Translations under genes and position numbers: made by a program | From: Patescibacteria group bacterium | Lineage (GTDB): Bacteria > Patescibacteriota > Minisyncoccia > Minisyncoccales > UBA5738 | DNA length: 64,000 bases | Direction of reading: 5' to 3' | Assembly (NCBI GenBank): GCA_034678605.1 | Contig: JAXDBQ010000039.1 | Coordinates: forward strand, 1,172-65,171 | Shown here: positions 27,933-61,397 of the stretch, in pieces | Numbering within the stretch: position 1 is the first letter of the stretch | How the letters are laid out: each line of letters opens with the position of its first letter | Notes under the pieces: generated by a model | Databases searched by the model: none | The model's input: only the letters and a program-made list of their open reading frames with translations | Told to the model about the DNA's origin: nothing

Positions 27933-28610
27933 ATGAACAAAAAAATTGCGTTATTCTTGGCGTTGGCCGGGTTGTTTGTTTTCGCGCCGGCGGCGAGCGC
28001 GCATTTGCCGCGGCTGGAGCGCGGCAAGACCGAAATAAAGATCGAAAAGCCGGAAGTTTCCCAGGCGTTTTATGGTTGGCTTCAAGGGAAACCGGCGGTT
28101 TATTTGATTTCTTCAAAAAAGCCGTTTTTGCTTTATTTGGGATTGCTGTCGCCGCGGACCGAGGCCGCGCGCATGGATTATTCGATTTCGATTAGCAAGG
28201 ACGGCGCGCCGTTCGCGCGGGTTTCGGCTGATGATTCGCTGTGGATGCTTGAGTACGAGCCGTTTGGCGATGACTATTATTCCAAGGGCCCGGAATATCA
28301 AGCCCAAGTTCCGGCCGGCGATTATCAAATCGAAGTTTCTAATTCGGGCAACAACGGCAACTATGTGCTGGTGGCGGGCAAAACCGAGGATTTGTCGGCG
28401 GGCGAGTTTTTGCGCACGTTGGCGGTGTTGCCGGCGGTCAAGCAGGAATTTTTTGGCAAGCCGTGGTGGCAGGCCTATAACAATTTGGTGGGGTTGGCGG
28501 CGTTTATTTTGCTGGTTTTTATTTCGATCGCGGCCTATTTTATAATCTCGTTTATCCGCCGCCGCCGCCTTAAAGCCAAACTTGACCGCGAATATTCCAA
28601 ATTATCTTGA
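27933..28610 (+). CDS. Secreted protein with a C-terminal membrane anchor; the mature N-terminus is predicted to start with His
   Basis: Signal peptide ...FAPAASA|HLPRLE, a beta-rich body, a C-terminal TM (LVGLAAFILLVFISIAAYFIISFI), then RRRR. Confidence 0.5.
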   Translation: MNKKIALFLALAGLFVFAPAASAHLPRLERGKTEIKIEKPEVSQAFYGWLQGKPAVYLISSKKPFLLYLGLLSPRTEAARMDYSISISKDGAPFARVSADDSLWMLEYEPFGDDYYSKGPEYQAQVPAGDYQIEVSNSGNNGNYVLVAGKTEDLSAGEFLRTLAVLPAVKQEFFGKPWWQAYNNLVGLAAFILLVFISIAAYFIISFIRRRRLKAKLDREYSKLS

Positions 28611-28714
28611 ACTACGAACTCAATCCAAATACTTTTGAAGGGGTCTAACCCCTGCGATTACGCAGGGGATAGACCCCAAAATGCAAATTCAATTAAACCG
28701 CCATGGCGAATTCA
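28609..28714. repeat. R2 MITE-like element (nested hairpin core ggggtcta-a-cccctgcg-atta-cgcagggg-a-tagacccc), copy 1
   Basis: The core is at 28640-28677, with the tail aaaatgcaaattc to 28690. There are degenerate terminal repeats gaactacgaac / gcgaattc. The right end overlaps the yraN start. Confidence 0.75.
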
Positions 28715-29119
28715 AGATCCGTTGGTCGAAAAGGGGAGGAAATTGCCGCGGATTTTTTGCGGGGCAAGGGCTATAAGATATTGGACCGCAATTTTGTTTT
28801 CCGCGTTCCCGGCGGGCCGGCGGTCGCCGAAGTTGATATCATCGCCAAAAAGCGCGATTTGTTTGTATTCGCGGAAGTGAAAACCATCAAGGCCAATTCA
28901 AAATATCTGGCGCAGGACAAGGTGAACATGGTCAAGAAATGGAAGATCGCCAAGGCCGCGGAATTGTGGCTGATAAAAAACAAAGTTCCGCTCGATGTCA
29001 AATGGCAGATCGACGTGATCGCCATCGAGCTTTTGCCCGACGACCGGCCAAAAATCATGCGCCAGCTCCTTGGCCCCAAATGCAAAATCTCGCATTTTGA
29101 AAACATCGCAATCCGCTGA
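28703..29119 (+). CDS. yraN: YraN-family (UPF0102) endonuclease-like protein
   Basis: GRKGEEIAADFLRGKGYKILDRNF, EVDIIAKKRDLFVFAEVKT (PD-(D/E)XK core). Confidence 0.8.
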   Translation: MANSRSVGRKGEEIAADFLRGKGYKILDRNFVFRVPGGPAVAEVDIIAKKRDLFVFAEVKTIKANSKYLAQDKVNMVKKWKIAKAAELWLIKNKVPLDVKWQIDVIAIELLPDDRPKIMRQLLGPKCKISHFENIAIR

Positions 29120-29274
29120 TTTCGCGAATTTAAAAAACTGGATTATATTCCATAAATTTCAAAATCGGTGTTTTGTGCCGGTTTTGGCCTTAAATTTTAC
29201 CGAATTCCAATTAAAAAATTTGACATTTTATGAAAATAAATTAGATTAATTAAAAAAATGGCGGAGGTATTTAT

Positions 29275-29487
29275 TTGGACATTAAAAAAGGCGATGAATT
29301 TGAATTGAAGGGAAAAATTTGGGGAGCCGCATCAACTGCGGCGGGAGAGAATAGTCGATATTTATATCCAGGGGCAACCGTAAGAATCGAAAATCCGAAT
29401 AATTCGTGGATGAAAATTTCTTCAACAATCGATGGAAAAAGAGAATATTTCAAAACCAGTAAGGAATTGTTTTTGAAGGCTATTTGA
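29275..29487 (+). CDS. Small hypothetical protein
   Basis: TTG start with ggaggt 8 nt upstream; 70 aa; AT-rich. Confidence 0.35.
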   Translation: MDIKKGDEFELKGKIWGAASTAAGENSRYLYPGATVRIENPNNSWMKISSTIDGKREYFKTSKELFLKAI

Positions 29488-30169
29488 TGTTTGGTATTAA
29501 TTTCTTCAGTTTCGTTATGGTGCGGAGAGGGTGGTCGAGGGCTTTTTCGAGGAAATTAGCCGCGCATCCGCTTGCCGCGCCTTTTTTTTCTTTGATGGCG
29601 GCGATAATTTGTTCGGGGGTAATGTCCGGCGACCAGTCAAACGGCAGTTCGAGCCAGACCTTGCCGAGGAAATGGTTGCTAAAGTGCGCGTCCGAGCCGG
29701 CGGTAAACGGCAGGTTGTGTTTTTGGGCAAAGCCGCGGGCTTGATCGTTGCCCCAAAAAACCGAGGCGTTCAAAATTTCGACGCCGTCAAATTGCCCCAG
29801 ATAATTTCGTAAATTTTCTTTGAATCCGCAAAACGAGCCGAAGGGGTGGGCGATGATGGCCAGTCCGTTTTGTTTTTTTATTCTTGCCAAAACTTCGCGG
29901 GCCGGCAAGTGGTCGGGGATCGGCTCTTTGATGTTTAGCGCCAAAATATCGCCGGAGGTCGATTTTACTTCTTCGGCCGGGATCACCAAAATCGGCAAAT
30001 TATTTGCTTGGACGTATTTTCGCGCTTCCAACGAGCCGACCATATTGCCGTGGTCGGCGATGGCAACGCATTGCAAGCCGCGCTTCAATGCCAAATCAAC
30101 GATCTTTTTGGGATCGGCCAGGCTGTCGAATGAGTAACGGCTGTGGATGTGGAGGTCGCAGCGGATCAT
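29480..30169 (-). CDS. PHP-domain metal-dependent phosphoesterase
   Basis: CDLHIHSRYSFDS, AIADHGN, IAHPF, AGSDAH. Confidence 0.8.
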   Translation of the reverse strand: MIRCDLHIHSRYSFDSLADPKKIVDLALKRGLQCVAIADHGNMVGSLEARKYVQANNLPILVIPAEEVKSTSGDILALNIKEPIPDHLPAREVLARIKKQNGLAIIAHPFGSFCGFKENLRNYLGQFDGVEILNASVFWGNDQARGFAQKHNLPFTAGSDAHFSNHFLGKVWLELPFDWSPDITPEQIIAAIKEKKGAASGCAANFLEKALDHPLRTITKLKKLIPNIK

Positions 30170-30170
30170 A

Positions 30171-30262
30171 GAATTAAAAAATTAAATTCAAATGCTATTG
30201 TCGGGGTCTAACCGCCCGCGAGTACGCGGGGGATAGACCCCAAAATACAAAATGCGAAATTC
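30171..30262. repeat. R2 MITE-like element, copy 2
   Basis: gaattaaaaaattaaattcaaatgctattgtc ggggtcta a ccgcccgcg agta cgcggggg a tagacccc aaaatacaaaatgcgaaattc. Confidence 0.8.
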
Positions 30263-30323
30263 TAAATACTTTGATTTGAAATTTTAGCATATTGTAGTAT
30301 TGTAGCAATAAAGGGGATTGAAT

Positions 30324-30896
30324 ATGGAATTTGATTTTTTGTTTATCGTGTCGTGTATTTATTTTTTCTTGCCGGCGTATTTGGCCAATATGACGCCGCC
30401 TTTGGTTCGCAACGCCAAGATATTCGATTTTTTGGCGCGGCCGGTGGACTTTGGCAAGACTTGGCGCGGCAAGCGGATTTTTGGCGATCACAAAACCTGG
30501 CGCGGCGCGGTCTGCGCGATCGCCGTGGGCATGGGCGCGGCGTTGTTGCAATGGTGGCTTTACAAATTCCATTGGGCCGAAGAGCTTTCTCTGCTTGATT
30601 ATAAATCGGTAAATTTGTGGGTGTTTTCGCTGCTTTTCGCCGGCGGCGCGGTAGCCGGCGATTTGGCCGCGGCTTTTGCCAAGCGACGGCTGAATTTGCC
30701 GCCGGGCGCGCCGTTTATGCCGTGGGACCAAACCAATTACGTTGTCGGCAGTTTTGTTTTTTTGGCGGCTTATTTGGGGAAATATTTGACCGGCGATTTG
30801 CTGGTATGGGGCGCGGTTTTCGTGACGACATTCTTTTTGCATTTGCTTTTCAACCGCTTTGGTTATGATATCGGCTTGCACAAAGCAAAATGGTAA
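30324..30896 (+). CDS. carS: CDP-archaeol synthase (CarS, DUF46/UPF0290) homolog; CDP-alcohol/CTP-transferase-like membrane protein
   Basis: FLPAYLANMTPPL...PVDFGKTWRGKRIFGDHKTWRGAV and multiple TM segments match the CarS family pattern as I remember it (YxPAYxANxxP ... DGxRxxGxxKTxxG). Confidence 0.65.
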   Translation: MEFDFLFIVSCIYFFLPAYLANMTPPLVRNAKIFDFLARPVDFGKTWRGKRIFGDHKTWRGAVCAIAVGMGAALLQWWLYKFHWAEELSLLDYKSVNLWVFSLLFAGGAVAGDLAAAFAKRRLNLPPGAPFMPWDQTNYVVGSFVFLAAYLGKYLTGDLLVWGAVFVTTFFLHLLFNRFGYDIGLHKAKW

Positions 30897-30990
30897 TTTT
30901 AGCGCAAAGCGCAAAGCGTAAAGCGCAAAGTAAAAATGCGGATTTTGAATTTTACTTTTAGTTTTTCGCTTTAAGTTTTACGCTTTTACT
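30897..30990. repeat. Word-hairpin family B, full hairpin
   Basis: agcgcaaagcgcaaagcgtaaagcgcaaagtaaaaatgcgg | attttgaattttacttttagtttttcgctttaagttttacgctttt. Confidence 0.8.
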
Positions 30991-31644
30991 ATGGTTTACG
31001 AAACATTCAATAATTTCATCGACCGGGTTTCCGGTTCGGCGTTCGATCTGGCGTCAGCCGGGATAATTTTTTTGTTCGGCTGGTATTTCGCGTACGTGAT
31101 CGGCGGCAAGGCGGCTGAATTCATCGGCCGCGCGAAATTGAACCAAATCATCAAGCGGGCGGGGTGGAATGAGGCGATCGGCCGCGTTTGGCGCGGCATG
31201 ACCGCGGCCAAGCTGTTCGGCAAAACAGTGGAAATTTGGGTGCTGCTGTTCTTTTTGATGGTTTGCGCGGGCATTTTGCGGCTTGACAGCGTGAGCCAGT
31301 TTTTGCAATCGGCAGTGGTTTATTTCTTCAATATTTTTGTTGCGTTTTTGATCTTGGCGGTGGCCGCGGTTTTGGCGGATTTTTCGCGAAATAACTTGAT
31401 CGCCAATTTGGAAAAGGAAAAATTCGTTTATTCGCATTTTTTGTCAAAATGCGTTTCGGGGGTGATTTGGACTTTGGCGGCGCTTGCAATCCTTTATCAA
31501 TTAAAGATTATCGCGCCGCTGGTGCTCACGATTTTCGTGGGCATCGTGGTGACGGTTTCGGTGGCCGTGGGATTGGCCTTGGGCTTGGGCGGCAAAGATC
31601 TGGCGGCCAAAATTTTGAAAGAGATCGAAAGCCGGCTCAAATAA
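30991..31644 (+). CDS. Hypothetical polytopic membrane protein
   Basis: Five to six hydrophobic segments; no confident family. Confidence 0.5.
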   Translation: MVYETFNNFIDRVSGSAFDLASAGIIFLFGWYFAYVIGGKAAEFIGRAKLNQIIKRAGWNEAIGRVWRGMTAAKLFGKTVEIWVLLFFLMVCAGILRLDSVSQFLQSAVVYFFNIFVAFLILAVAAVLADFSRNNLIANLEKEKFVYSHFLSKCVSGVIWTLAALAILYQLKIIAPLVLTIFVGIVVTVSVAVGLALGLGGKDLAAKILKEIESRLK

Positions 31645-32549: not shown

Positions 32550-32697
32550 GATTTAAAATCACGATAAATCCCAAATCCCAAGCGCTAAATCCCAAATAAA
32601 TTCAAATATCAAAATTTTAAATTAGAAGTTTTCGTTTTGATTTTTGATGTTTGGATTTGTTTAGGATTTAGAATTTAGGACTTAGATTTTTTAAGGT
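32550..32697. repeat. Word-hairpin family C, full hairpin
   Basis: aaatcccaaatcccaagcgctaaatcccaaataaattcaaatatcaaaattt ... ttttgatttttgatgtttggatttgtttaggatttagaatttaggacttagattt. Confidence 0.8.
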
Positions 32698-35297: not shown

Positions 35298-35445
35298 AAA
35301 TTCGAAGCACGAATTTCGAATATCAAAACAAATTCGAATTCTCAAATTTTCAAATGTTCAAAACAAAATTTCTTTTTTTGTTTTGAAAATTTTAAATTTC
35401 GATATTCGACATTGTTTCGGATTTCGATATTCGATATTTGAATTT
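35298..35445. repeat. Word-hairpin family A, copy A5
   Basis: aaattcgaagcacgaatttcgaatatcaaaacaaattcgaattctcaaattttcaaatg ... gaaaattttaaatttcgatattcgacattgtttcggatttcgatattcgatatttg. Confidence 0.8.
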
Positions 35446-41329: not shown

Positions 41330-41402
41330 ATGCAATTTGCAAATTTGATGTGAATCGATCTATATATGGCTTCGGCCGTATTTTTTTTATCCAATTTTCT
41401 TT

Positions 41403-41499
41403 GAATTACGAAACGCTTTGTATTTTGGGGTCTATCCCCTGTGTAATCGCAGGGGTTAGACCCCTTCAATAGCATTTAAATTTAATGGTTTTGTAATTC
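41403..41499. repeat. R2 MITE-like element, copy 3 (inverted orientation) with 12-bp terminal inverted repeats
   Basis: TIRs are gaattacgaaac / gttttgtaattc. The core is ggggtctatcccctgtgtaatcgcaggggttagacccc. Confidence 0.8.
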
Positions 41500-41613
41500 A
41501 AGGTAATTTTGAATTGTCGATTCCGCGTTTTTGGAATCAATTTTCAACGGTATGTTGAAATTCGATTTCAATTGTCTCTGGAAGAAGAAATTTATAAAAA
41601 AAGACGAGGATGA

Positions 41614-42473: not shown

Positions 42474-42586
42474 GTTTCACACCTTGTTTTCAATGAAACT
42501 TATCTTATTATAAACTATTAAAATAAAAAGTCAAGTATTTACGAAACGAAAAATAGTTTATAATGAATTAATAAATTATTTTTTTG

Positions 42587-45103
42587 ATGCTTTTATTTTT
42601 TAAAAAGAAATTTATAATTTTAATTTTATTGGGATTAAGTTTTTTTTCATTGGTCTGTGGAGTTTTGGCGCAAGAGGGAGGCGCCAGCGGCGGTAGTGAT
42701 TCTTCGAGTGGGTCGAGTGGGGATGGGGACGCGGGCGGGACGGCGGGAGAAGAGGGAATGACGTTGGAAGAGAGGTTGGCGGAAATCAAGGCGCAATTTT
42801 TGCTTGATGGCGACGCGGCGGCGATGCAGCAGGCGTTATTGGATGTTGCCAATACCTATGACGTGGGCCAATATGAATCGACGCAGGCACTCTATGACCA
42901 AGCATGGGAACTCTCCACTAGCGGCAATTTAAATAATAACAACAGCGACAACAATCCGCCGCCGGCCGACCCTTCGGCCCAACCAACCCAAACTTCAAGC
43001 GGGCCGACGCAGACGGGAAGCGGAAACAGCGGGAGCGGCAATGTTCCGACAACGCCGGTGGTTTCGGGAGTTTTGTCGTTGGGCAACACTACGACGCCAA
43101 ATACGGCGTTGCTTGGAAGTCAAACGCAAACCGCTGATGATGAAACGAATGACGATCAAATAATTAGTTTAGGCAATCAAACAAAACCCGACATGGTTTA
43201 TTTGGGCGATCAATCAAATTCGGGAAGTCAAACGCCGGTTGTTTTGGGCAACCAAACCAAACCCAATCCGGTTTGTATCGGCAGCGCGTGCGCCAATCCG
43301 CCAACAAACACCGTGCCAACGAGCGGAGATGATGATTCTTGGCCGGATTTCCCTGATTATTATTATGATGATCCGAGCGATTATTATGTTCCGGCGGGTT
43401 CCGGTTCGGGATCGGGTTCAAGCAGCGGCAGTTATAATACAAATACAAATTCAAACACGAACACGAACACGAACACGAACACAAATACAAACACAAATAC
43501 AAACACAAACACCGGCAATATCAACAATACCAATGTCAATACAAACAATAATAGCGGTAATGTCGCGGTTCAAGAAGTTCCGGTGACGGCGGCGGATTTT
43601 AAGCCGGTGGCCGATCAAACCGCGGCGCTTTTGCTGGCGGCCAAGGGTAATGTTTTGGATTTGCGGGTGGCGGTTTCCGGCGCCCAAGCCGTGGTTTTTT
43701 ATATCGAAGGCGGGGCGTTGCCGGCCGCGCTTTATTTGGGCGCGGGAATATCGGCGGGAGATATTTGGGATTATCGGCTTGATCTTGGGTCGGCCGGAAT
43801 TCCCAACGGCAATTATTTTATTTGGGCGCAGGTGTCAAAAGGCGGCCAGGTATTTCGCACCAAAAAACAGCCGGTGGTGGTTAATGTGTTGGTGCCGGTT
43901 GACGCGGCCAAAATCAGTGATTTAAACAAGGACATTTCCCAATTGAAGACCGAAATTGTCGTCAACGAAAAAGAGGTCGGCCAAATCGTTTCCGCCGGAG
44001 AAGGTGATATCGCGGCCAAGATCGGCGATGAATCGATGGCAAAAACCATCCGCGCGATCGCCAAAATAATGCAAGAAATTCAAGGGTTGGGCGATGATTT
44101 GGCCGAAACCTCGCGAAAATTCGCCGAGGTCAATCAAAAGATCAAACAAATAAAATTAGAGATTGATTCGCTTGTCGACGATACTCTTGATTTGATCAAA
44201 AACGATAAATCGCGCGCGTTGGACGAATTAAATCGCCAAGCCGCGGTTTTTGAAAAAGAAATCGCGCGGATCAATGCCGCGATCAAAAACAAGAACGGCC
44301 AAAAGGACGCGTTGATCGCCCAAATTTTGGCCGCGGCTCGAAAAAACGGCAATGAAGCCGAAGTTTCGCGTTGGCTGGCGGATTTTGAAAATTCGATCAA
44401 ACAAAAAGAAAAGCAAATCGCCGACAATAAAAAAGCGCTGGCCAAAGACAGCGACGGCGATGGACTTAGCGACGAACGGGAAGCGGCGCTGGGCACCGAT
44501 CCGTTCAATCCCGACAGCGACGGCGACAGCATTCTTGACGGCGATGAAGTTTCGGCGGGCTTTAATCCGTTAAAGCCCGATATTTTTTCCAATATCAAAT
44601 ACAGCAATCCGCGATTGGTTGATCCCTACAAAACCGACATCTATCGGTTTGATGAAAAAGACGCGGTGCGGGCGGTGAAATTGGCCAACGGCAAAACCGG
44701 CATTCAATTCAAGGGTTGGGGTTTGCCCAATTCCTATGTGACGCTTTTTGTTTATTCGGCGCCGGTGATCGTGGTGGTGAAAACCGATGGCGCGGGCCGC
44801 TGGACCTACACATTGAACCAGCCGATCGATGACGGCCAGCACACCGCCTACGCGGCGCTCACCGATGGCTTGGGGCAAATAAAGGCGCGGTCGGAGGTTT
44901 TGGTGTTCATCAAAAAAGGCGATTTCGTGGCGCGGGTCACTTCCAACCAAGAGGCCTCGATGGAAGCGGCCGCGCAAAAAATGAAAAGCGATTTTGGATT
45001 GTTCTTGTTTTTTGGCATCGCGGCCGCGGTGGTCGCGGCGATGGCGATTATCGGTTACGTGGCGGGACGGCAAGGCGGCAACGAAGCCGATCAAGGTTTA
45101 TGA
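42587..45103 (+). CDS. Large cell-surface protein: signal peptide, S/G/N/T low-complexity region with an (NT)n tract, coiled coil, thrombospondin-type-3-like Ca-binding repeats, C-terminal TM anchor
   Basis: MLLFFKKKFIILILLGLSFF signal; NTNTNSNTNTNTNTNTNTNTNTNT; DSDGDGLSDEREAALGTDPFNPDSDGDSILDGDE; C-terminal FGLFLFFGIAAAVVAAMAIIGYV. Confidence 0.6.
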   Translation: MLLFFKKKFIILILLGLSFFSLVCGVLAQEGGASGGSDSSSGSSGDGDAGGTAGEEGMTLEERLAEIKAQFLLDGDAAAMQQALLDVANTYDVGQYESTQALYDQAWELSTSGNLNNNNSDNNPPPADPSAQPTQTSSGPTQTGSGNSGSGNVPTTPVVSGVLSLGNTTTPNTALLGSQTQTADDETNDDQIISLGNQTKPDMVYLGDQSNSGSQTPVVLGNQTKPNPVCIGSACANPPTNTVPTSGDDDSWPDFPDYYYDDPSDYYVPAGSGSGSGSSSGSYNTNTNSNTNTNTNTNTNTNTNTNTNTGNINNTNVNTNNNSGNVAVQEVPVTAADFKPVADQTAALLLAAKGNVLDLRVAVSGAQAVVFYIEGGALPAALYLGAGISAGDIWDYRLDLGSAGIPNGNYFIWAQVSKGGQVFRTKKQPVVVNVLVPVDAAKISDLNKDISQLKTEIVVNEKEVGQIVSAGEGDIAAKIGDESMAKTIRAIAKIMQEIQGLGDDLAETSRKFAEVNQKIKQIKLEIDSLVDDTLDLIKNDKSRALDELNRQAAVFEKEIARINAAIKNKNGQKDALIAQILAAARKNGNEAEVSRWLADFENSIKQKEKQIADNKKALAKDSDGDGLSDEREAALGTDPFNPDSDGDSILDGDEVSAGFNPLKPDIFSNIKYSNPRLVDPYKTDIYRFDEKDAVRAVKLANGKTGIQFKGWGLPNSYVTLFVYSAPVIVVVKTDGAGRWTYTLNQPIDDGQHTAYAALTDGLGQIKARSEVLVFIKKGDFVARVTSNQEASMEAAAQKMKSDFGLFLFFGIAAAVVAAMAIIGYVAGRQGGNEADQGL
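43436..43512 (+). repeat. Hexanucleotide microsatellite (aacacg/aacaca/aataca units) inside the surface-protein CDS
   Basis: aacacg x4 at 43454-43477, followed by alternating aacaca/aataca units. It encodes the (NT)n tract. Confidence 0.85.
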
Positions 45104-46544: not shown

Positions 46545-46584
46545 CGAGGTGAATCCTTGACGAGCGCGGCAAGGATTCACCTCG
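46545..46584. repeat. R3-like GC hairpin inserted in a family-B arm
   Basis: gaggtgaatccttg acgagcgcgg caaggattcacctc (14-bp stem). It is flanked by aaagcgaaaagcgtaaagtaaaatgcag and ttggatttgcattttt. Confidence 0.65.
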
Positions 46585-46782: not shown

Positions 46783-46945
46783 GAACTTCCATTATTTCGC
46801 TTTGGCTGCACATAGCAAAAAATTAATCAATTTCAGCTTTTTTTAATAAACAAATTAATTTTAATTTAGTGCATATATCAGAAACTATTTTGGAATTGCT
46901 TTAACAAAAATTGGCGTAATCGCCAGTTTTTGTTAAAGTGGGCTT

Positions 46946-48157
46946 ATGAAGACCGGAGTTGCCACCGTGCCGCTGGATTGGGGGCGGTGCCCCCGCTGGC
47001 TGTTCGAACGGATGACGCGCCTGGGGCGCGGGATTTGCGTTGCCATCGTGGAAGAATTCGGCTCGGAAGAATTGTTGAAACGTTTGTCGGATCCGGCGTG
47101 GTTCCAATCGTTGGGGTGCGTAATGGGATTCGATTGGAATTCGTCGGGGTTGACCGTGACCACGATGGGCGCGCTAAAGGAAGCGGTCAAGGGCATGGAA
47201 ACCGATCTGGGATTCTATGTTTGCGGCGGCAAGCGCGTGTCGCGCCGCACCCCCGAAGAAACGCTTGCTTGGGGCCAATTTTTGGGCTGGAGCGAAAGCA
47301 AAACCGGTAGCTTGGTCAACGCTTCCAAAATGGCGGCCAAGGTTGATTCGGCGCTGATTCAAGACGGATTTTCGATTTACGCCCATAATTTGTTGTTCAC
47401 GAATTCCGGCAAGTGGGCGGTGATCCAGCAAGGGATGAATGTTGGTCTGCAGAAAGCGCGGCGTTACCATTGGTTGGGCGACGGCGTGAATGATTTTACT
47501 GTTGAGCCGCATTCGGGCATTGCCAGCGACGCGCGCTTGAAATCGCTCAATCTCACGGCCAAGGAAAGCGGGGAGAACAAGGAAATTTCCGCCGAAATGG
47601 TGAAACTTGAGCCGGACGCGTTTTTGAAAAATTTCAAAAGCGCGGCGCAGGCGGTTTCAAAAAATATGCCCCGCCTGAAAGGCGAGGCTCGCCCCTTGGG
47701 GGCGGCCGTTGCCAATCCCAACGGTTCGAGCTTGGGGCGCCAAAGCCGCTTGCCCGGGTTTTCCGAAATGGAACTCAACGATGTGGAATTCCATTGGCAT
47801 CCGGTGGCGGCTGAAAAATTCGATCTAAAACGGCTCAAAAAAACCATTGAATTGGCGCATTTCCAAGCGCCGGAAAATTTCACGCAATTGTTGGCCGGCC
47901 AAGGTATCGGGCCAAAGACCATTCGCGCGTTGTCGCTGGTGGCCGAGATTATTTATGGCGCCAAGCCGTCCTATGAAGATCCGGCGCGTTATTCGTTTGC
48001 GGTGGGCGGCAAAGACGGCACGCCGTTTCCGGTGGATCGCAAGACCTACGACCAAATGCTGGGTGCCATGGAGCGGGGAATCCGCCAAAGCCAAATGCGG
48101 CAAGTCGAGATCGACCGGGCCCAGCGCCGCTTGGAAACCATAACCTATCCGTTTTGA
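46946..48157 (+). CDS. DUF763-family protein
   Basis: The N-terminus MKTGVATVPLDWGRCPRWLFERMTRLGRGI...LSDPAWFQSLGCVMGFDWNSSGLT matches my recollection of DUF763. It contains an in-frame G-element at 47669-47705. Confidence 0.55.
   Translation: MKTGVATVPLDWGRCPRWLFERMTRLGRGICVAIVEEFGSEELLKRLSDPAWFQSLGCVMGFDWNSSGLTVTTMGALKEAVKGMETDLGFYVCGGKRVSRRTPEETLAWGQFLGWSESKTGSLVNASKMAAKVDSALIQDGFSIYAHNLLFTNSGKWAVIQQGMNVGLQKARRYHWLGDGVNDFTVEPHSGIASDARLKSLNLTAKESGENKEISAEMVKLEPDAFLKNFKSAAQAVSKNMPRLKGEARPLGAAVANPNGSSLGRQSRLPGFSEMELNDVEFHWHPVAAEKFDLKRLKKTIELAHFQAPENFTQLLAGQGIGPKTIRALSLVAEIIYGAKPSYEDPARYSFAVGGKDGTPFPVDRKTYDQMLGAMERGIRQSQMRQVEIDRAQRRLETITYPF
47669..47705. repeat. G-family GC mini-palindrome (core ggcgaggctcgcc) inside the DUF763 CDS
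   Basis: ccccgcc tgaaa ggcgaggctcgcc ccttgg gggcgg. It encodes ..PRLKGEARPLGAA.. in frame. Confidence 0.75.
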
Positions 48158-48177: not shown

Positions 48178-48277
48178 CCGTAGGGGCGATTCTATGTAAT
48201 CGCCCGTATTGTAACGCTCGCATCCGTTTATGTAATTGATAGAATTCAAATACGGGCGAAAACATAGTTTCGCCCCT
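48178..48277. repeat. R1 REP-like double-hairpin element, copy a
   Basis: gtaggggcgattctatgtaatcgccc ... gggcgaaaacatagtttcgcccctac. It is flanked by gaatttgtatttgcatttg and gaatgcaaaatga tails. Confidence 0.85.
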
Positions 48278-48365
48278 ACGAATGCAAAATGAAAAACTAT
48301 TCTTCCAATAACGCGCAAAAAGGCAAGTTGGCCTATCGCACTCCCAGCCGCTTTATATATCAAAA

Positions 48366-48965
48366 ATGTCTCAACGCTCAAAAAACAAGAATCCGGAAAG
48401 GCAAAACAAATTGGAGCAAATCGCCCAAGAAATAAGCGTTTGCCGAAAGTGCCGTTTAGCCATTACCCGGAACAAGACCGTGCCCGGAGAAGGGGGCGCC
48501 GAAGCGGAATTTTTTGTGATCGGCCAGGGTCCGGGCGCCAAAGAGGATAGAACCGGCCGGCCGTTTTGCGGCCGTTCGGGGCAATTGCTCACGGAATTGC
48601 TGGCGCTGGCCGGCATTGACCGCCAAAAGCAAACTTTTATCACTTCAATCGTGAAATGTTTGCCCACGCCGCCGTTGAATCGCAAGCCCAAATCGGATGA
48701 GATTGCCGCTTGTCATGATTTTTTGATGGAGCAGCTGGAAATTGTTGGCGCCAAGAAAATAATTTTGCTGGGAGACGCGGCGTTTAAGCAATTTTTTCCG
48801 CACGATAAATTTTCCGACTGGCGGGGAAAATGGCGCCAGAAAGCCGGCAAGCGATATTTTGTTTCCTACCATCCGGCCGCCGGCATCCGATTTGTGAAAT
48901 TCAAAAAGATCCTTGAATCCGATTTTTCGAATTTGCATTTAACCCGTAGGGGCGATTCTGTGTAA
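48366..48965 (+). CDS. Uracil-DNA glycosylase, family 4
   Basis: CRKCRL...VPGEGGAEAEFFVIGQGPGAKEDRTGRPFCGRSGQLL, YHPAA. The last 6 codons and the stop (TRRGDSV*) are supplied by repeat R1-b. Confidence 0.85.
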   Translation: MSQRSKNKNPERQNKLEQIAQEISVCRKCRLAITRNKTVPGEGGAEAEFFVIGQGPGAKEDRTGRPFCGRSGQLLTELLALAGIDRQKQTFITSIVKCLPTPPLNRKPKSDEIAACHDFLMEQLEIVGAKKIILLGDAAFKQFFPHDKFSDWRGKWRQKAGKRYFVSYHPAAGIRFVKFKKILESDFSNLHLTRRGDSV

Positions 48966-49029
48966 TCGCCCGCATTCGAATTTTATAATTTACGTAATTG
49001 CAAGGGCGAAAACATAGTTTCGCCCCTAC
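48946..49029. repeat. R1 REP-like element, copy b
   Basis: gtaggggcgattctgtgtaatcgcccgc ... gggcgaaaacatagtttcgcccctac. Confidence 0.85.
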
Positions 49030-49614: not shown

Positions 49615-51246
49615 TTACTCGCGTATTTTTTTTACCATATAGGTTTTCTGCAATTTATAGCCGTTTTTGCGCCAGTATTGGCGCGCGCCCACGCCCGAGA
49701 TTGCGGCGATTTTTTTTGCGCCAAATTCGGTTTTAGCGACGTGCTCGGCTTCTTTAATTAATTTTTTTCCCAATCCGGTGTGCTGGGCCGCCGATAGGCG
49801 AGCCTCGCCCTTTGGGCGGGCCGATTCGCTTTTTAATTCAATTGGAATTTGCAATCCATAAGTATGTATTTCCCGAATTATCGCGTTTGTATTTTTTGGT
49901 AGGGGCGATTCTGTGTAATCGCCCGCATTTGATATCCTCAATCGCAAAAGCGAAAATAATTTTGTCTTGCTTTCATTCTCAAACGACAAAAATATCTCCA
50001 ATCCGCCCGATGCCTCATAATCGCGCCGCGTCAAGATTATTTTTTTGTTTGGATCATATCCGCCTTTGACCTCGCGGCAGCGGATGCAGGCGCAATGCCA
50101 ATTTTCTATTTCCATGTCGCGGCTAATTATCTGGCGCAAATTGGAAATTTGCTTGGTGCCGGCGGTGATGCGCGGGGAGGGGATATCGCGGATGATGCGC
50201 TCGATCCTGACATAAGGAGGGACGATTTTTTTGATCTCTTTGACGACTTCGACTAATTTTTCATCCGAATAGGGTTGGTATTTTCCGCTTTGGTAGATTT
50301 CATAGAGCGGCGCTTCTTTCAAAACCGCGCATGGATAGATTTTCAGAAGATCCGGGCAAAAATTTTGATCGGAAAACAGGATTTTAGCCATTTCAATGTC
50401 GCGTTGTGACGACGAACCAAAAAGATTGAGCATGATCTGGTAGGAAACCTTAAAGCCGGCGTTTTTTAGTAATTTCGTGGCGGCAATTGTGGCGTCAATT
50501 TTGTGGCCGCGGTTATTTGATTTCAAAACATCGTCATAGATGCTTTGAATTCCCAATTCCACGCGCGTCACGCCCAAATCGCGCAAACGCAAAATTTCTT
50601 TTTCATCGATGTGGTCCGGCCGGGTTTCGACCGAAATTCCCACAATGCGGCATTTGGCATTTTCATTTTTTTTCTGCTCGGCTTCCAAATTTAAATTCAC
50701 AGGGTTCCGATTCCTTTTGCAAAGATCGTTGCCGGCGGCAAAGCAGGCGGCGATGAATTTGGTTTGATAGGCCTTGGGATAAAAGCTCCAGGTGCCGCCG
50801 ATCACGCGCAGTTCCACTTTGTCGATGTTGTGGCCCTCGGCGGCCAGATTTTCCAGGCGTTTTTTGACTTGGACATAGGGGTCGAATTTCAAAAGTCGGG
50901 CGCGTTCGGCCGCCGGTTCCCCCGAAAGATAGCTTTTTGGGAATCCGGGCTCGCTGGGGCAATAAAGGCAATTTCCCGGGCAGGGATAGGGCTTGGTGAG
51001 CACTGAAACGTTCACGATGCCCGACAGCGACCGCACCGGCCGCACCCGCAGCAACTCTTTGAGGCGGCAAGTGTAGCAAGGTTTCACCTTGCTACACTTC
51101 AAAGCAGCCAGCAGGGAGATGTTGTCCGGATAGGGGATTTTCATTTCCTTGGCGGCTTGCCGCTTGAACGCCTCCAACTCGGCTTTGGTTTTCGGATTTG
51201 CCGCCACCAATTTTTCCGCAATAATTTGGTTGATTTGTTTTTCCAT
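49615..51246 (-). CDS. elp3: Elp3-like radical-SAM/GNAT tRNA-modification enzyme
   Basis: CPGNCLYCPSEPGFPKSY radical-SAM cluster region, VELGIQS, LRLR...IREIHTYG, and a C-terminal GNAT (QHTGLGKKLIKEAE). It contains an R1 half-element (49899-49926) and a G-element (49786-49822) in frame. Confidence 0.85.
   Translation of the reverse strand: MEKQINQIIAEKLVAANPKTKAELEAFKRQAAKEMKIPYPDNISLLAALKCSKVKPCYTCRLKELLRVRPVRSLSGIVNVSVLTKPYPCPGNCLYCPSEPGFPKSYLSGEPAAERARLLKFDPYVQVKKRLENLAAEGHNIDKVELRVIGGTWSFYPKAYQTKFIAACFAAGNDLCKRNRNPVNLNLEAEQKKNENAKCRIVGISVETRPDHIDEKEILRLRDLGVTRVELGIQSIYDDVLKSNNRGHKIDATIAATKLLKNAGFKVSYQIMLNLFGSSSQRDIEMAKILFSDQNFCPDLLKIYPCAVLKEAPLYEIYQSGKYQPYSDEKLVEVVKEIKKIVPPYVRIERIIRDIPSPRITAGTKQISNLRQIISRDMEIENWHCACIRCREVKGGYDPNKKIILTRRDYEASGGLEIFLSFENESKTKLFSLLRLRISNAGDYTESPLPKNTNAIIREIHTYGLQIPIELKSESARPKGEARLSAAQHTGLGKKLIKEAEHVAKTEFGAKKIAAISGVGARQYWRKNGYKLQKTYMVKKIRE
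49786..49822. repeat. G-family GC mini-palindrome inside the elp3 CDS
   Basis: ggccgcc gata ggcgagcctcgcc ctttg ggcgggcc. It encodes ..SARPKGEARLSAA.. on the minus strand. Confidence 0.75.
49899..49926. repeat. R1 half-element (single hairpin) inside the elp3 CDS
   Basis: gtaggggcgattctgtgtaatcgcccgc. It encodes ..AGDYTESPLP.. on the minus strand. Confidence 0.75.
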
Positions 51247-52519: not shown

Positions 52520-53584
52520 TTGGGATTTAGGATTTCAATTGAAATTGTGGATTTGAGCAAATTGGAAACGATATTGGCGGGGGAGCCGGCCTACCGGGCC
52601 AAGCAGGCGCGGGAGGCGGTTTTTGGTTCATTGATCGATGATTGGAGCCAGGCGCGGGAATTGCCTGAAAATTTGCGCCAAAAATTGGCGGCAGAGTGTT
52701 CGCTTGATATCAACGCCGAAATTTTCCATTCAAAAGACGGCGCTTCGGCCAAAGCGCTGATAACTTTGGCCGACGGAGCAAAGATCGAAACCGTGCTGAT
52801 GCGGCATGGCAGCCGCCCGCGGGCGAGCCTCGCCTTTCAGGCGGGCCGGAATACGGTTTGCGTGTCGTCGCAGGTCGGCTGCCCGATGGGGTGCGCTTTT
52901 TGCGCCACCGGCAAAATGGGTTTCAAGCGGAATTTATCGGCCGATGAAATTGCGGAACAGGTTTTGCTTTTCGCGCGGATTTTGAAAAAAGAAGGCCGGC
53001 GGGTTGACAACGTGGTTTTTATGGGAATGGGCGAGCCGTTCTTGAATTATGCCAATGTGATGGCCGCGGTTAAAATTTTAAACGACCAGCGGGGGTTGAA
53101 TATCGGCGGCCGCCATATTTCGATCTCCACTTGCGGAGTTGTCGAGGGAATCGAAAAGCTTGTCGATGAACCGATCCAAGTTAATTTGGCAATTTCGCTG
53201 CACGCGCCCAACGATGCTTTGCGTTCGAAGCTGATGCCGATCAACGCCAAATATCCGTTGAAAAAACCGGTCGAAACCATCGCGCATTATATCGAAAGAA
53301 CCAACCGGAGGGTGATGCTTGAATACATAATGATCGACAAGGTCAATGATTCGGATGATTGCGCCCGGGAACTGGCCGACCTGGTGAAAACGCGATTATC
53401 GCCCAAATTGGCGTTCGTCAACCTGATCCGCTACAACCCGACCGGAGAATTTTTGGCGTCGCCGCCGGAACGGGTAAAAGCTTTCAAGGATATTTTGATG
53501 AAAGCCGGTGTGGAAACCACTGAACGTTATCGCTTCGGCCGCCAGATCAAGGCCGCTTGCGGCCAATTGGCGGCCAAAAGTTAA
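52520..53584 (+). CDS. rlmN: 23S rRNA/tRNA (adenine-C2)-methyltransferase RlmN (radical SAM)
   Basis: YRAKQ..., CVSSQVGCPMGCAFCATG, GMGEP, SLHAP. The start is uncertain (TTG 52520 lies in repeat C; GTG 52547 is plausible). It contains an in-frame G-element at 52813-52849. Confidence 0.9.
   Translation: MGFRISIEIVDLSKLETILAGEPAYRAKQAREAVFGSLIDDWSQARELPENLRQKLAAECSLDINAEIFHSKDGASAKALITLADGAKIETVLMRHGSRPRASLAFQAGRNTVCVSSQVGCPMGCAFCATGKMGFKRNLSADEIAEQVLLFARILKKEGRRVDNVVFMGMGEPFLNYANVMAAVKILNDQRGLNIGGRHISISTCGVVEGIEKLVDEPIQVNLAISLHAPNDALRSKLMPINAKYPLKKPVETIAHYIERTNRRVMLEYIMIDKVNDSDDCARELADLVKTRLSPKLAFVNLIRYNPTGEFLASPPERVKAFKDILMKAGVETTERYRFGRQIKAACGQLAAKS
52813..52849. repeat. G-family GC mini-palindrome inside the rlmN CDS
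   Basis: ccgcccgc g ggcgagcctcgcc tttcag gcgggccgg. It encodes ..SRPRASLAFQAGR.. between the conserved LMRH and NTVCVSSQVGC blocks. Confidence 0.8.
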
Positions 53585-53673
53585 GCGAAAAGCGCAAAGA
53601 GCAAAGCGTAAAACAAGAATTCGAAATGCGTATTTTGCTTTAAGTTTTTCGCTTTTCGCTTTACACTTCCATT
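53585..53673. repeat. Word-hairpin family B, full hairpin
   Basis: gcgaaaagcgcaaagagcaaagcgtaaaacaagaattcg | aaatgcgtattttgctttaagtttttcgcttttcgctttacac. Confidence 0.8.
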
Positions 53674-57699: not shown

Positions 57700-57779
57700 T
57701 GTAGGGGCGAAACTATGTTTTCGCCCGCATTCGCATTTTGAAATCGCGGGTTCGGGGCGATTACATAGAATCGCCCCTA
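57700..57779. repeat. R1 REP-like element, copy d (inverted orientation)
   Basis: gtaggggcgaaactatgttttcgccc ... ggggcgattacatagaatcgcccctac. It supplies the last codons and stop (GTRRGDSM*) of the PAP2 gene. Confidence 0.85.
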
Positions 57780-58399
57780 CGGGTGCCAATTGCGATCGCG
57801 CCGTTCAAAACTGCGGCGCCGGCCAAAAATCCGGCAATGACGTCGGCAGGGTAGTGCGCGCCCAGATAGACGCGCGAAAATCCCACCAACAAAACGAATA
57901 TCGGCGCGATAATGTTTATCGTCCACAGCAGTTTTTTGTTTTTGACCGATTTGTTGGCCAAAAACAACAAGACGCCATAAAAAACCAGTGAGTTCATCGA
58001 ATGGCCCGATGGGAAACTATACCATGACGCGTCTTCCAGCGCCGGCATATCGGGAAATTCCGGTCGCGGCCGCTGGACAGTGTATTTCACGAGATTGTTG
58101 ATGATCACGCTGGTTAAAAGCGTGGCGGCGAAAAACAAAGCGGTTTGGCGCCGTTTTTTTATCCAAAAAGCCAGAATCATGATCGCGGTCAACAGGCCGG
58201 TGAACATCGTGGAACTGACCGTTGAAATCGCGGTTAGAATTTGCGTCAAAAACGGACTTCTTAAATCGTAGATCACTTTCGTCCATTGGGCGTCAAAATC
58301 CATTGTTTTATTGCCGGCCACCGCAAAAACGATCGTGGCGAATGCCACGACTAAAATTACGACCGTCGCCCCAAATTTGACTTTATTGGTTATTGTCAT
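57761..58399 (-). CDS. PAP2-family lipid phosphatase (undecaprenyl-diphosphatase / phosphatidate phosphatase type)
   Basis: KYTVQRPRP, SFPSGHS, SRVYLGAHYPADV (the three PAP2 motifs). Confidence 0.8.
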   Translation of the reverse strand: MTITNKVKFGATVVILVVAFATIVFAVAGNKTMDFDAQWTKVIYDLRSPFLTQILTAISTVSSTMFTGLLTAIMILAFWIKKRRQTALFFAATLLTSVIINNLVKYTVQRPRPEFPDMPALEDASWYSFPSGHSMNSLVFYGVLLFLANKSVKNKKLLWTINIIAPIFVLLVGFSRVYLGAHYPADVIAGFLAGAAVLNGAIAIGTRRGDSM

Positions 58400-58420
58400 A
58401 AATTGATTATAATCTAATAT

Positions 58421-58519
58421 GAATTATGAAACGCTTTGAATTTGTATTTTTGGGGTCGTTCCCCCGTGTAATCGCGGGGGTGCGACCCCGATAATAGTAT
58501 TAGAAGAGTTTCGTAATTC
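58421..58519. repeat. R2 MITE-like element, copy 4 (inverted orientation) with 12-bp TIRs
   Basis: TIRs are gaattatgaaac / gtttcgtaattc. The core is ggggtcgttcccccgtgtaatcgcgggggtgcgacccc. Confidence 0.8.
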
Positions 58520-59199: not shown

Positions 59200-59270
59200 A
59201 TCAATTTAATCGATAACGGACACTCTCACATTCTTGAGAATGTGAGAATATCAGTAAATTTTTTAATAAA

Positions 59271-59702: not shown

Positions 59703-59705
59703 AAA

Positions 59706-60320
59706 ATGGTGATGGAATATAATTCGAAAATCCATCATCGGAGGTCGATTCGCGCCCAAGGATATGATTATTCGCGGGATAGCGCGTATTTTGTGACGAT
59801 ATGCGCGCAGGATATGAAGTGCGTGTTTGGGAATATCGAAAGAGGGGAGATGAGATTGAATGGGGCGGGAGAGATGGTTGATTTTTGGTGGCGGGAATTA
59901 CCCAATAAGTTCCAAAATATCCGGCTTGACGAATTTACGGTGATGCCGAACCATTTTCACGGGATTTTGGTTGTAGGGGCGATTCTATGTAATCGCCCTG
60001 AGCCCGTAATTTTGAATTCGGATTTTGATGCGGGCGAAAACATAGTTTCGCCCCTACGGAAAATACAAAATGCAAATGCAAAAATTCCAAATACATACGC
60101 CGGTTTAGGACAATATGTTTCTTGGTTTAAACGAATGACGACCAATGAATATATCCGCAATGTTAAAATCGGCAAATTCCCGCCGTTCGAAAAATCGGTT
60201 TGGCAGAGGAATTATTGGGAGCATATTATTCGCGACGATGATGAGTTGGACCGCATCCGCGGATATATTGTCGATAATCCGTCAAATTGGGAAATCGATG
60301 AATTTTATTCGCAGAAATAA
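59706..60320 (+). CDS. REP-associated tyrosine transposase-like protein (RAYT; IS200/IS605 Y1 HUH superfamily, COG1943)
   Basis: YFVTICAQD, the HUH motif in MPNHFHGILVV, and the C-terminal catalytic-Tyr region RNYWEHIIRDDDELDRIRGYIVDNP. It contains a complete R1 element in frame. Confidence 0.8.
   Translation: MVMEYNSKIHHRRSIRAQGYDYSRDSAYFVTICAQDMKCVFGNIERGEMRLNGAGEMVDFWWRELPNKFQNIRLDEFTVMPNHFHGILVVGAILCNRPEPVILNSDFDAGENIVSPLRKIQNANAKIPNTYAGLGQYVSWFKRMTTNEYIRNVKIGKFPPFEKSVWQRNYWEHIIRDDDELDRIRGYIVDNPSNWEIDEFYSQK
59982..60056. repeat. R1 REP-like element, copy e, inside the RAYT-like CDS
   Basis: gtaggggcgattctatgtaatcgccc ... gggcgaaaacatagtttcgcccctac, followed by the tail ggaaaatacaaaatgcaaatgc. 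It translates to VGAILCNRPEPVILNSDFDAGENIVSPLRKIQNANA. Confidence 0.85.
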
Positions 60321-60434
60321 TGCGGGCAACCACAAGGGTTGCCCCTACGATGTAAATGCTAATTCTGGATTATTTCGGGGCGTGTGTTATGTTAAAAACA
60401 CAATAATAGGAATAATCAAAAACGTAAATTTGTA

Positions 60435-60484
60435 GAGGTCAGACCTCGGCGTGCTCGCCGAGGACTGACCTCGAATGCAAATGC
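60435..60484. repeat. R3 nested-hairpin element, copy 1
   Basis: gaggtcag a cctcggcg tgct cgccgagg a ctgacctc gaatgcaaatgc. Confidence 0.8.
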
Positions 60485-60499
60485 GCGATCAAAAAATCT

Positions 60500-60748
60500 A
60501 TGGCGGCAAAACAAACAAAGAGGGAGGAGTTCAAGGTTTCCGGGGAGAAGGTGATCGAGAAGGTCAAAGAATTGATCAAAGAGGGTAATGTGCGCCGGAT
60601 AATCATCATCAACGAAAAAGGCGAAACATTGGTCGAAATTCCGCTCACATTCGTGGTGGTGGGCACGGCCTTGGCGCCGGTGCTGGCCGCCGTCGGGGCG
60701 TTGGCGGCGCTGATCGCCAACTGCACGATCGTGGTGGAGAGAAAATAA
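60500..60748 (+). CDS. DUF4342-family protein
   Basis: FKVSGEKVIEKVKELIKEGNVRRIIIINEKGETLVEIPLTFVVVGTALAPVLAAVGALAALIANCTIVVER. Confidence 0.65.
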   Translation: MAAKQTKREEFKVSGEKVIEKVKELIKEGNVRRIIIINEKGETLVEIPLTFVVVGTALAPVLAAVGALAALIANCTIVVERK

Positions 60749-60749
60749 T

Positions 60750-61250
60750 ATGCCCATACATTTAAATTACCAGGGGACGACATGCAAAAAGTGCGGGGCG
60801 GAATTCATTGCTCACCGGGTCGGCTGTTCTTGCCCGCGGTGCCAAACCGCGGCCGCGGAAGTTTTTGATTTCGTGCCGGCAACTATCGCTACGATGAAAG
60901 ACCACAAGCAGATGTACGGCAATTATTTTCCGGACAGCTGGTTTTCGGGATCAGCGGCCGACATCGTCCAGGGAATAATTTTTGAATTGTTCGACAATTT
61001 CGAGATCGAAAAGCCCAAAGATATGCTGGCGTTCATCGTGGAACAGCTGGCGCAGGTGGAATGGGAGGAAGGTCAGGAACATTTGGCCGGCCAAACCGAG
61101 CAGATCGCTTTGGAAGTTTTCGAGATATACAAAACCGATCCGGATTTCCGCGGCGACGTGCTCAAGGAAAAACCGCTCAATCCGAAACTGGAAAATTTGA
61201 ATCCAAAATCGGATACCCCGCTTGATATTGACAACAACATTGGTTTTTAA
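60750..61250 (+). CDS. Hypothetical protein with an N-terminal Zn-ribbon (CKKC...CPRC)
   Basis: It starts 2 nt after the preceding stop. It has a four-Cys ribbon and an acidic helical remainder. Confidence 0.4.
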   Translation: MPIHLNYQGTTCKKCGAEFIAHRVGCSCPRCQTAAAEVFDFVPATIATMKDHKQMYGNYFPDSWFSGSAADIVQGIIFELFDNFEIEKPKDMLAFIVEQLAQVEWEEGQEHLAGQTEQIALEVFEIYKTDPDFRGDVLKEKPLNPKLENLNPKSDTPLDIDNNIGF

Positions 61251-61346
61251 TAGGCGGGATAATTTTTGTCGTTTTCTTTTTGCCTTGAAACGAGGGCGTT
61301 TTTTGTATAATATCAAGGATAAGCGAATTTGAGGTGCGAGTTTGAC

Positions 61347-61397
61347 GAGGTCAGACCTCGGCGATTACGCCGAGGACTGACCTCAAATGCGAAATTC
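61347..61397. repeat. R3 nested-hairpin element, copy 2 (same orientation as copy 1)
   Basis: gaggtcag a cctcggcg atta cgccgagg a ctgacctc aaatgcgaaattc. Confidence 0.8.

Follow-up and report, generated by a model that had tools for sequence, protein, structure and literature searches.

The question raised by the 64 000-nucleotide stretch analysed here (the window; positions 1,172–65,171 of contig JAXDBQ010000039.1 from a Patescibacteria group bacterium, assembly GCA_034678605.1) is what kind of repeat its dispersed nested palindromes represent and what could have spread them. The original prediction, made from the sequence of the window, placed three sets of hairpins (R1, R2 and R3) in one superfamily resembling miniature inverted-repeat transposable elements (MITEs), with conserved ends and fully covarying cores. 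Our analysis separates R1, which carries a GTAG tag, from R2 and R3, which we call GGTC-type hairpins. R2, R3 and two added copies are read here as a single repeat family, dispersed, non-coding and strand-polar, that belongs with the REP/REPIN elements (REP, repetitive extragenic palindrome; REPIN, REP doublet forming a hairpin), with a REP-associated tyrosine transposase (RAYT) as the candidate for their propagation through single-stranded DNA, a reading to which we give somewhat better than even weight. The family is confined to the Paceibacteria/Minisyncoccales lineage of the candidate phyla radiation (CPR) and is best described as a miniature, untagged REP/REPIN variant beside the GTAG-REPs. 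CPR/Patescibacteria genomes are ∼1 Mb in size and are considered to be highly streamlined; this lineage nonetheless carries frequent GGTC hairpins plus doublets of GTAG-REPs.

A covariance model built from relatives places seven GGTC-type nested hairpins of 38 nt in the window, all of them intergenic, a density of ∼1 per 9 kb (7/64 kb; Table 1). Five had been cited before (R2a, the cores of the two full-length R2 copies, R3a and R3b) and all five show the predicted 8-1-8-4-8-1-8 layout, a 17-bp stem with one A·A mismatch (T·T on the other strand). Neither the R2 nor the R3 consensus was matched in 100 dinucleotide-preserving shuffles (0/100 for each). It had also been claimed that the stems of R2 and R3 have hardly any sequence in common and that every stem position has changed, which is wrong on both counts: 11 of the 16 positions per arm are identical, and the two differ at five pairs, all five of which are compensated. 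The remaining two copies (30203–30241 and 46545–46584) were found with the covariance model; they lie inside the interval covered by the original prediction and had been overlooked. The second is a divergent variant, and L011 (the prefix L denotes loci from other contigs and genomes) has a canonical GGTC copy at the orthologous place. The conserved flank of R2a reaches ∼28609–28697, the full-length R2 unit at 41401–41501 has 92–97% identity to copies in L096, L112 and L043, and the hairpin at 58452–58489 includes two T·G wobbles.

Relatives were collected with a loose-pattern scan (GGTCNNNCCNNNNNGTAATCNNNNNGGNNNGACC) of one genome per species, which gave at least 113 loci; the pattern fixes seven stem pairs and the loop. 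Among the matches listed, ∼80 loci come from about a dozen CPR metagenome-assembled genomes (MAGs) labelled Minisyncoccales, Paceibacterota, ‘Saccharibacteria’, UBA5738, UBA6102 and, in one case, ‘Pacearchaeota’. The family is thus present in at least 12 related CPR (Paceibacteria/Minisyncoccales) MAGs. A further 34 non-CPR loci (Actinobacteria, Ktedonobacterales and others) were non-palindromic and recurred at conserved sites; they are taken to be chance matches in coding sequence and were excluded. No viral sequence in IMG/VR matched the pattern. The related loci searched and the window together hold 134 distinct GGTC-type matches, and where copies overlap open reading frames (ORFs) these are mostly spurious or terminal ones. 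Seven of 13 genomes contain the commonest 38-mer without a single change, although their genes have only ∼75–79% DNA identity, and the dominant sub-family differs from genome to genome.

The original prediction would have been refuted by the lack of a significant excess of compensatory changes; this check, made on an alignment of 67 distinct copies from relatives, went in its favour. Stem cells are paired in 98.1% of cases, compared with 79.9% in column shuffles and 37–51% in slid controls; double changes occur at all nine of the stem pairs left free by the search pattern, and the covariation score (0.55 versus 0.21) was reached in none of 500 shuffles. There are 54 sequence pairs with exactly two differences, and in 22 of them the two changed positions are base-paired partners (∼2% expected by chance). 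The covariation therefore supports a dispersed, structure-conserved hairpin repeat with compensated sub-families. The compensation that had been predicted is strong, and only the description of the cores as ‘fully’ covarying was overstated, given the arm positions that R2 and R3 have in common.

The palindrome has two levels, as each arm is its own mini-hairpin, RRGG-TCNNW-CCYY. The mini-hairpin pairs 22–32 and 47–57 are kept in 60/67 and 65/67 sequences, respectively, and the pairs 21–33 and 46–58 in 51/67 and 57/67. The unit stems of relatives reach 7–8 bp, as in L085 (CGCGAAGG-TCTAA-CCTTCGCA-AGTT-TGCGAAGG-TTAGA-CCTTCGCG) and in a long-stem version from L112 (CAGAGGG-TCTAA-CCCTCTG-AT-CAGAGGG-TTAGA-CCCTCTG), and some versions have an additional hairpin nested within the central loop. 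Free single units of the form stem-GGT-NNN-ACC-stem′ number 21, versus 102 units in a doublet context; single units are found at the DUF4342/Zn-ribbon junction of L119 and L121. Since the arms fold on themselves and single units exist, the 38-mer is an inverted doublet of the mini-hairpin, and with its four-way covariation it is structurally a miniature REPIN. With 38 nt, a compensatory series and a conserved T·T mismatch, it offers a compact natural model for shape-based DNA recognition.

Which strand folds can be read from the mismatches. Copies were oriented by the loop alone (TAAT versus ATTA), and in the 62 distinct 38-mers so oriented 908 cells are Watson–Crick paired, 64 are G·T, 7 are A·C and 13 are of other kinds. 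Fresh single-step mutations yield both kinds of mismatch (12 G·T and 8 A·C), and the multi-copy variants (14 of 14) have no A·C or other mismatch and 0–2 G·T wobbles, so that only variants with Watson–Crick or G·T pairing on the GTAATC-loop strand reach more than one copy; A·C variants do not appear to spread. The strand asymmetry of the GGTC family thus separates propagating from dead-end variants. The flanks are polar as well: on the GTAATC-loop strand the motif T[GT][CT]ATTT stands 5′ of 33/91 copies and 3′ of 25/91, the figures for its complement being 0 and 5/91. The G·T excess and the polarity of the T-motif show the folded strand to be the GTAATC-loop strand, the reverse of the orientation given in the original prediction. 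The flank consensus is TGYATTT plus 2 nt on the 5′ side and YYGNCAAAC on the 3′ side. Terminal inverted repeats (TIRs) of ∼12 nt had been reported for the two full-length R2 copies; these exist, with one mismatch each, and are confined to the R2 sub-family. The 14-nt TIRs of the full-length R2 unit (TTGAATTACGAAAC/GTTTYGTAATTCAA) recur in the window, L047, L096 and L112. A MITE-like character with TIRs is not general, as the other flanks are strand-asymmetric direct T-rich motifs, and no target-site duplications were seen around the TIR copies.

The surroundings of the R3 copies show how these elements turn over. The gene order PRTase–RAYT–DUF4342–Zn-ribbon–next gene(–LeuRS) is conserved in the window, L099, L100, L119 and L121/L135, i.e. 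in at least five related genomes, while the sites and orientations of the hairpins vary. The two genes between the R3 pair (60500–61250), described earlier as a two-gene cassette, are thus part of ordinary conserved synteny, and the R3 copies do not mobilise them. The R3a site is filled only in the window, its orthologue being empty in L099 and L100; the DUF4342/Zn-ribbon junction is filled in L099, L100, L119 and L121 and empty in the window; and the copy that L100 has at the R3b site is built from other stems and faces the opposite way. Hairpins have therefore been gained and lost at orthologous sites over species-level time. Of the copies between co-directional genes, 30 have the folded strand in sense and 13 in antisense orientation, with a further 11 copies between convergent and 11 between divergent genes; 20 of the 30 sense-oriented copies lie ≤45 nt after a stop codon. 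The 30:13 bias fits insertion into the lagging-strand template; in loci of 8 kb a bias relative to replication is inseparable from gene orientation.

The R1 hairpins are of another class, in which an 8-bp stem with a 6-nt loop carries a GTAG tag. The predicted copies of R1 and their A-rich tails are present. The arrangement of most of them as inverted doublets and a third variant at 60324–60348 had been overlooked; the ten GTAG hairpins of the window comprise four inverted A/B doublets and two singles. The doublets pair two compensated variants, A (GGGCGATT/AATCGCCC) and B (GGGCGAAA/TTTCGCCC). At the place of the doublet at 48946–49029 the orthologous site in L036 is empty and the two genes abut.

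The predicted RAYT-like HUH/Y1 protein is encoded 115 nt from one R3 copy and carries both the HUH and the catalytic Tyr motif of such enzymes. Its matches to Pfam Y1_Tnp (E = 1.6e-3, 19 bits, cut-off 23) and NCBIfam REP_Tyr_transpos (47.8 bits, cut-off 80) fall below the cut-offs because a REP-encoded insert splits the match. Its sole PDB match is 4ER8 (E. coli TnpArep; E = 0.47), and it has at least 7957 homologues, many of them named RayT by JGI. We compared it with 80 related RAYT loci from metagenomes (L135–L214; 465 kb in total). In 63 of these loci the RAYT match itself contains GTAG hairpins (at least two in 46), and in 44/80 such hairpins are found ≤150 nt away from it, which identifies R1 as the cognate repeat of this RAYT clade. 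With its tag, its dimers and its adjacency to RAYT, R1 is a classic GTAG-REP doublet, and a consistent association with RAYT genes is seen for the GTAG class alone. The idea that L121 has a second RAYT paralogue was rejected; the extra gene upstream of the L121 RAYT is unrelated.

In this RAYT clade an in-frame inverted GTAG-REP doublet lies between the HUH and Tyr motifs (59973–60057 in the window, L100 5072–5132, L119 4293–4368, L123 975–1042 and L135–L214). It is translated as VGAxxxxRP ... GxxxxSPL or RAxTRPAPT, with stems that differ between genomes and are compensated. No description of such a doublet within RAYT was found in the REP/RAYT literature examined. It could be, though we think this unlikely, a vertically inherited master copy that couples the evolution of repeat and enzyme. 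Other R1 REPs also contribute to coding sequence. In an ELP3-like radical-SAM/GNAT gene, REPs with other stems stand at the same place as 49899–49924 in L036 (∼4430–4498, two in tandem) and L049 (7627–7651); the L023 gene is apparently without a REP. The R1 REPs at 48946–48965 and 57761–57780 supply the final codons and stop of two genes, a UDG-family gene ending in ...TRRGDSV* and a PAP2 gene ending in ...RRGDSM*; the L036 and L023 orthologues end otherwise.

What ties the two hairpin classes together is a flank. TGYATTT is present 54 times in the window, compared with ∼20 expected; 20 of these copies adjoin the 17 hairpins, without exception on the 5′ side when R1 is read on its GTAG strand and R2/R3 on the GTAATC strand. 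The superfamily with shared ends proposed earlier holds insofar as there is a shared flank module (TGYATTT 5′, GYATT 3′) and fails insofar as R1 and R2/R3 are different classes of hairpin. The module accompanies 10/29 GTAG-REPs in the CPR set versus 3/247 in other RAYT loci and is thus lineage-specific, and comparison of filled with empty sites shows that the TGYATTT motif comes along with the insert. After the gene at 46946–48157 the window has an R1 doublet and L036 a GGTC hairpin, with a homologous TTTGTATTTNNNTATTTGA flank before both. We did not treat a 12-nt identity (CTGTGTAATCGC) between R1-A (48946) and R2b as homology because R1-type REPs of other genomes lack it. Three of the seven GGTC copies lie within 1.3 kb of the RAYT (binomial p ≃ 0.004, for a distance picked after the data had been seen), and L135 has two GGTC copies within 1.4 kb downstream of its RAYT.

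In the mechanism that we propose, the basic unit is a small hairpin, stem-(R)GG-T-NNN-A-CC(Y)-stem′, two of which, inverted around a short central palindrome that is usually CG-TAAT-CG, make up the 38-nt element. This can fold either as one 17-bp hairpin with the conserved T·T mismatch or as adjacent mini-hairpins. Copies would spread through a single-stranded DNA intermediate recognised by a structure-reading protein, for which the best candidate is probably the single-copy RAYT at 59706–60320. The link to RAYT is drawn from the flank module in common with the cognate REPs, the apparent clustering, the lack of target duplications and the orientation bias, and on this sequence evidence RAYT-driven mobilisation of the GGTC hairpins is plausible.

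Several observations weigh against it. GGTC-type elements occur in one of the 80 RAYT loci and are absent from 79, the repeats inside or immediately beside RAYT genes are always of the GTAG type, and GGTC hairpins have neither GTAG nor CGTC beside the stem. Two genomes rich in GGTC copies have damaged RAYTs: that of L100 (JBARNX01) has an in-frame TGA at 5007 where the window encodes Arg, and that of L099 (UBA5738) is truncated just past HUH at a REP hairpin (GGGCGAATAATCATTCGCCC, ∼2585–2640); both may be pseudogenes. Contigs 99.6–100% identical to the window, retrieved by exact-protein look-ups, have the same hairpin occupancy (one apparent gap is a run of N), and thus give no sign of recent movement. 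The constancy of the seven stem pairs and the loop is uninformative, since the search pattern fixes them, and the orientation bias would be equally explained by a role at the RNA level. The GGTC palindromes might instead be a distinct lineage-restricted form of self-propagating DNA that is not a classical RAYT substrate, with both folds maintained and read by a Paceibacteria-specific shape-reading factor; we think this unlikely.

Three further explanations were weighed against RAYT-driven spread, each of which is contradicted by at least one tested feature. A role in RNA, as stabilisers of mRNA 3′ ends or as terminator-like or untranslated-region structures, would make RNA folding the object of selection and dispersal secondary. 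The clustering of sense-oriented copies within 45 nt past stop codons suits this, as do the wobbles, which are G·U-compatible on the sense strand in 30/43 co-directional contexts, and the canonical terminator that L036 has where the window and L011 carry an element. There is no T-run behind the stem, however, and none of the elements is picked up by a terminator scan; of the copies, 13 point antisense and 11 sit in the promoter regions between divergent genes. R3b is itself antisense, downstream of a separate terminator-like hairpin and promoter-like site, and the L100 copy there is sense. No Rfam 15 family was found at the elements, with nothing overlapping them at E ≤ 1 and the gathering score reached only by four tRNAs. 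We consider an RNA role to be improbable, and the narrower reading as intrinsic terminators was rejected on the silent scan, the 3′ flank YYGNCAAAC and the antisense and divergent copies.

Conventional MITEs, moved via their TIRs by a DDE transposase from another part of the genome, would account for the conserved 14-nt TIRs of full-length R2 and for the folding of this unit as a ∼100-nt hairpin, but the TIRs are found in one sub-family only, the others having unrelated strand-asymmetric flanks, the TIR copies have no target-site duplications beside them and the conserved part is the hairpin core rather than the ends; this origin is very unlikely. A host protein that reads RGG-N5-CCY half-sites, such as a nucleoid, topoisomerase or segregation factor, could also use the hairpins as duplex binding sites or as structural punctuation, the palindromy being partly kept by template-switch correction of quasi-palindromes during replication. 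Template switching can yield compensated changes without selection. GGTC/GACC and CC/GG are constant in the window sub-families R2 and R3 (in the fetched relatives they are fixed by the pattern), four-way covariation would suit three tandem dimer sites and identical sequences occur across species. In such sites G·T should be no commoner than A·C and the flanks should have no strand polarity, whereas both asymmetries are strong here, and occupancy varies between orthologous sites, which leaves this explanation highly improbable.

Table 1. Coordinates of the hairpin repeats and the RAYT gene in the window.
Feature	Position	Strand	Details
R2a nested hairpin	28640–28677	−	Folded strand reads GGGGTCTATCCCCTGCGTAATCGCAGGGGTTAGACCCC; 77.6 bits
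GGTC-type hairpin	30203–30241	−	Loop TACT, one extra C in 3′ arm; 60.3 bits, E = 1.8e-17
Full-length R2 unit	41401–41501	+	TTGAATTACGAAAC, T-motif, hairpin 41427–41464, TTCAATAGCATTT..., GTTTTGTAATTCAA; z = −7.6
Divergent GGTG/CACC variant	46545–46584	+	GAGGTGAA-T-CCTTGACG-AGCG-CGGCAAGG-A-TTCACCTC; loop AGCG, then 3′ flank CCAAACTTGGATTT; 38.8 bits
Full-length R2 variant with TIRs	58421–58519	+	Hairpin 58452–58489 (GGGGTCGTTCCCCCGTG TAAT CGCGGGGGTGCGACCCC); z = −9.6
R3a hairpin	60435–60472	−	Loop GCAC/TGCT; 115 nt downstream of RAYT stop
R3b hairpin	61347–61384	−	Counterpart in L100 has different stems and opposite orientation
R1 doublet	48180–48279		A 48180–48205 +, B 48254–48279 −
R1 doublet	48946–49029		A +, B − (second REP from 49004)
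Single R1 REP	49899–49924	+	Within ELP3-like radical-SAM ORF; encodes GDYTESPL
R1 doublet	57701–57780		B +, A − (second REP from 57755)
R1 doublet	59973–60057		Second REP from 60032; within RAYT ORF; encodes VGAILCNRP ... GENIVSPL
Third GTAG-REP variant (GTAGGGGCAACCCTTGTGGTTGCCC)	60324–60348	−	3 nt past RAYT stop
RAYT-like HUH/Y1 protein	59706–60320	+	204 aa; motifs MPNHFHGI, WQRNYWEHIIR, GYIVDNP

Some further features of the window and its relatives were recorded alongside these. The window has an AT-rich hairpin at 46899–46938 (CTTTAACAAAAATTGGCGTAATCGCCAGTTTTTGTTAAAG) with the centre GGCGTAATCGCC, as in GGTC-type elements, which scores weakly with the covariance model (17 bits), and two perfect 14-bp hairpins with a GGT-NNN-ACC apex (908–938 and 51069–51099, the second within the ELP3-like ORF). 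Contigs of the same strain (L126, L127, L129, L132 and L133) end exactly at the hairpins at 30241 and 41427–41443; breaks of public short-read contigs at the hairpins are as expected for multi-copy repeats, and the GGTC family is a marker that breaks metagenome assemblies. A MAG deposited as ‘Candidatus Pacearchaeota archaeon’ (DAOSDI01) has many copies (loci L013, L014, L015, L034, L047, L060, L075, L086 and L088), and its label is probably wrong. A conserved 169-aa protein (61422–61931; IPDF...VEVKFR), for which Pfam gives no match, is encoded two genes downstream of RAYT in all of the syntenic loci (L099, L100, L119 and L121) and by eye looks like a possible PD-(D/E)xK nuclease. Many intergenic regions contain AT-rich imperfect palindromes of 7-nt periodic units, (AAAGCGC)n ... 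(GCGCTTT)n, with the A-rich arm first on the + strand (3619–3750, 7388–7490, 9100–9223, 9889–10027, 30895–30996, 32566–32690, 35334–35402, 53580–53664, 61930–62028 and others). A 12-nt periodic repeat at 43424–43525 (AACACGAACACG / AATACAAACACA) encodes the (NT)n tract of an 839-aa secreted protein (42584–45103).

Among known systems, integron attC cassettes were rejected as a model for the GGTC hairpins: chromosomal synteny is conserved in at least five genomes with hairpins at differing places, the copies displayed have no GTTRRRY core and there is no integrase among the ten window proteins scanned against Pfam. The DDE-type MITE class was likewise rejected, with TIRs confined to the full-length R2 sub-family and no duplications. 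The ends of IS200/IS605 insertion sequences and their non-autonomous derivatives are closer, in that they are strand-specific, with sub-terminal hairpins and neither TIRs nor target duplication, and the orientation bias is consistent with their use of a lagging-strand template; R2/R3 differ in having no distinct left and right ends or defined cleavage tetranucleotides, and the window contains no IS200-type TnpA or TnpB.

Published accounts of REP/REPIN–RAYT systems (PMC3733652, PMC5581495) deal mostly with Proteobacteria and a small number of other phyla. We found no description of REP-like repeats in CPR in a literature coverage that is incomplete and hence no proof of novelty. Of the GTAG- and CGTC-tagged REP super-families (Di Nocera et al., 2013; PMC3733652), the GTAG class is an exact fit for R1 in its tag, 8-bp stem, 4–6-nt loop, head-to-head dimers, intragenic copies and tyrosine transposase. 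R2/R3 resemble CGTC REPs in being likewise without a proven dedicated transposase; membership was rejected because they have neither tag and have 17-bp mismatched stems, versus stems of 8–9 bp with A·T first pairs in CGTC REPs. E. coli REP/BIME (bacterial interspersed mosaic element) sequences are read on one strand by the HUH/Y1 enzyme TnpA-REP (PDB entry 4ER8; PMC3479197), and like R2/R3 they form a hairpin with an internal mismatch and G·T pairs. The HUH and WQxxxWEHxIR...Y motifs of the window RAYT line up with those of 4ER8 in a match that is weak (E = 0.47), and binding of R2/R3 by the RAYT is putative.

REPINs, which are REP doublets forming hairpins and occur with RAYTs (Bertels & Rainey, 2011; PMC3116915, PMC3337134), remain the closest comparison. 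R2/R3 differ from them in size, with a doublet of 38 nt (13-nt units and a 12-nt spacer) compared with ∼100 nt for typical REPINs, and in having no GTAG, the repeats that flank or lie inside the RAYT being of this other class and the GGTC type being absent from nearly all of the RAYT loci compared. Whether a single RAYT can serve two repeat classes that differ in structure but have a flank module in common could be examined in this system. Like REPINs, R2/R3 consist of short imperfect palindromes of high GC content that are scattered between genes; their inverted units form a larger hairpin, singlets occur, a master sequence is conserved and a single-copy, vertically inherited RAYT is nearby, with R2/R3 copies apparently clustered around it.

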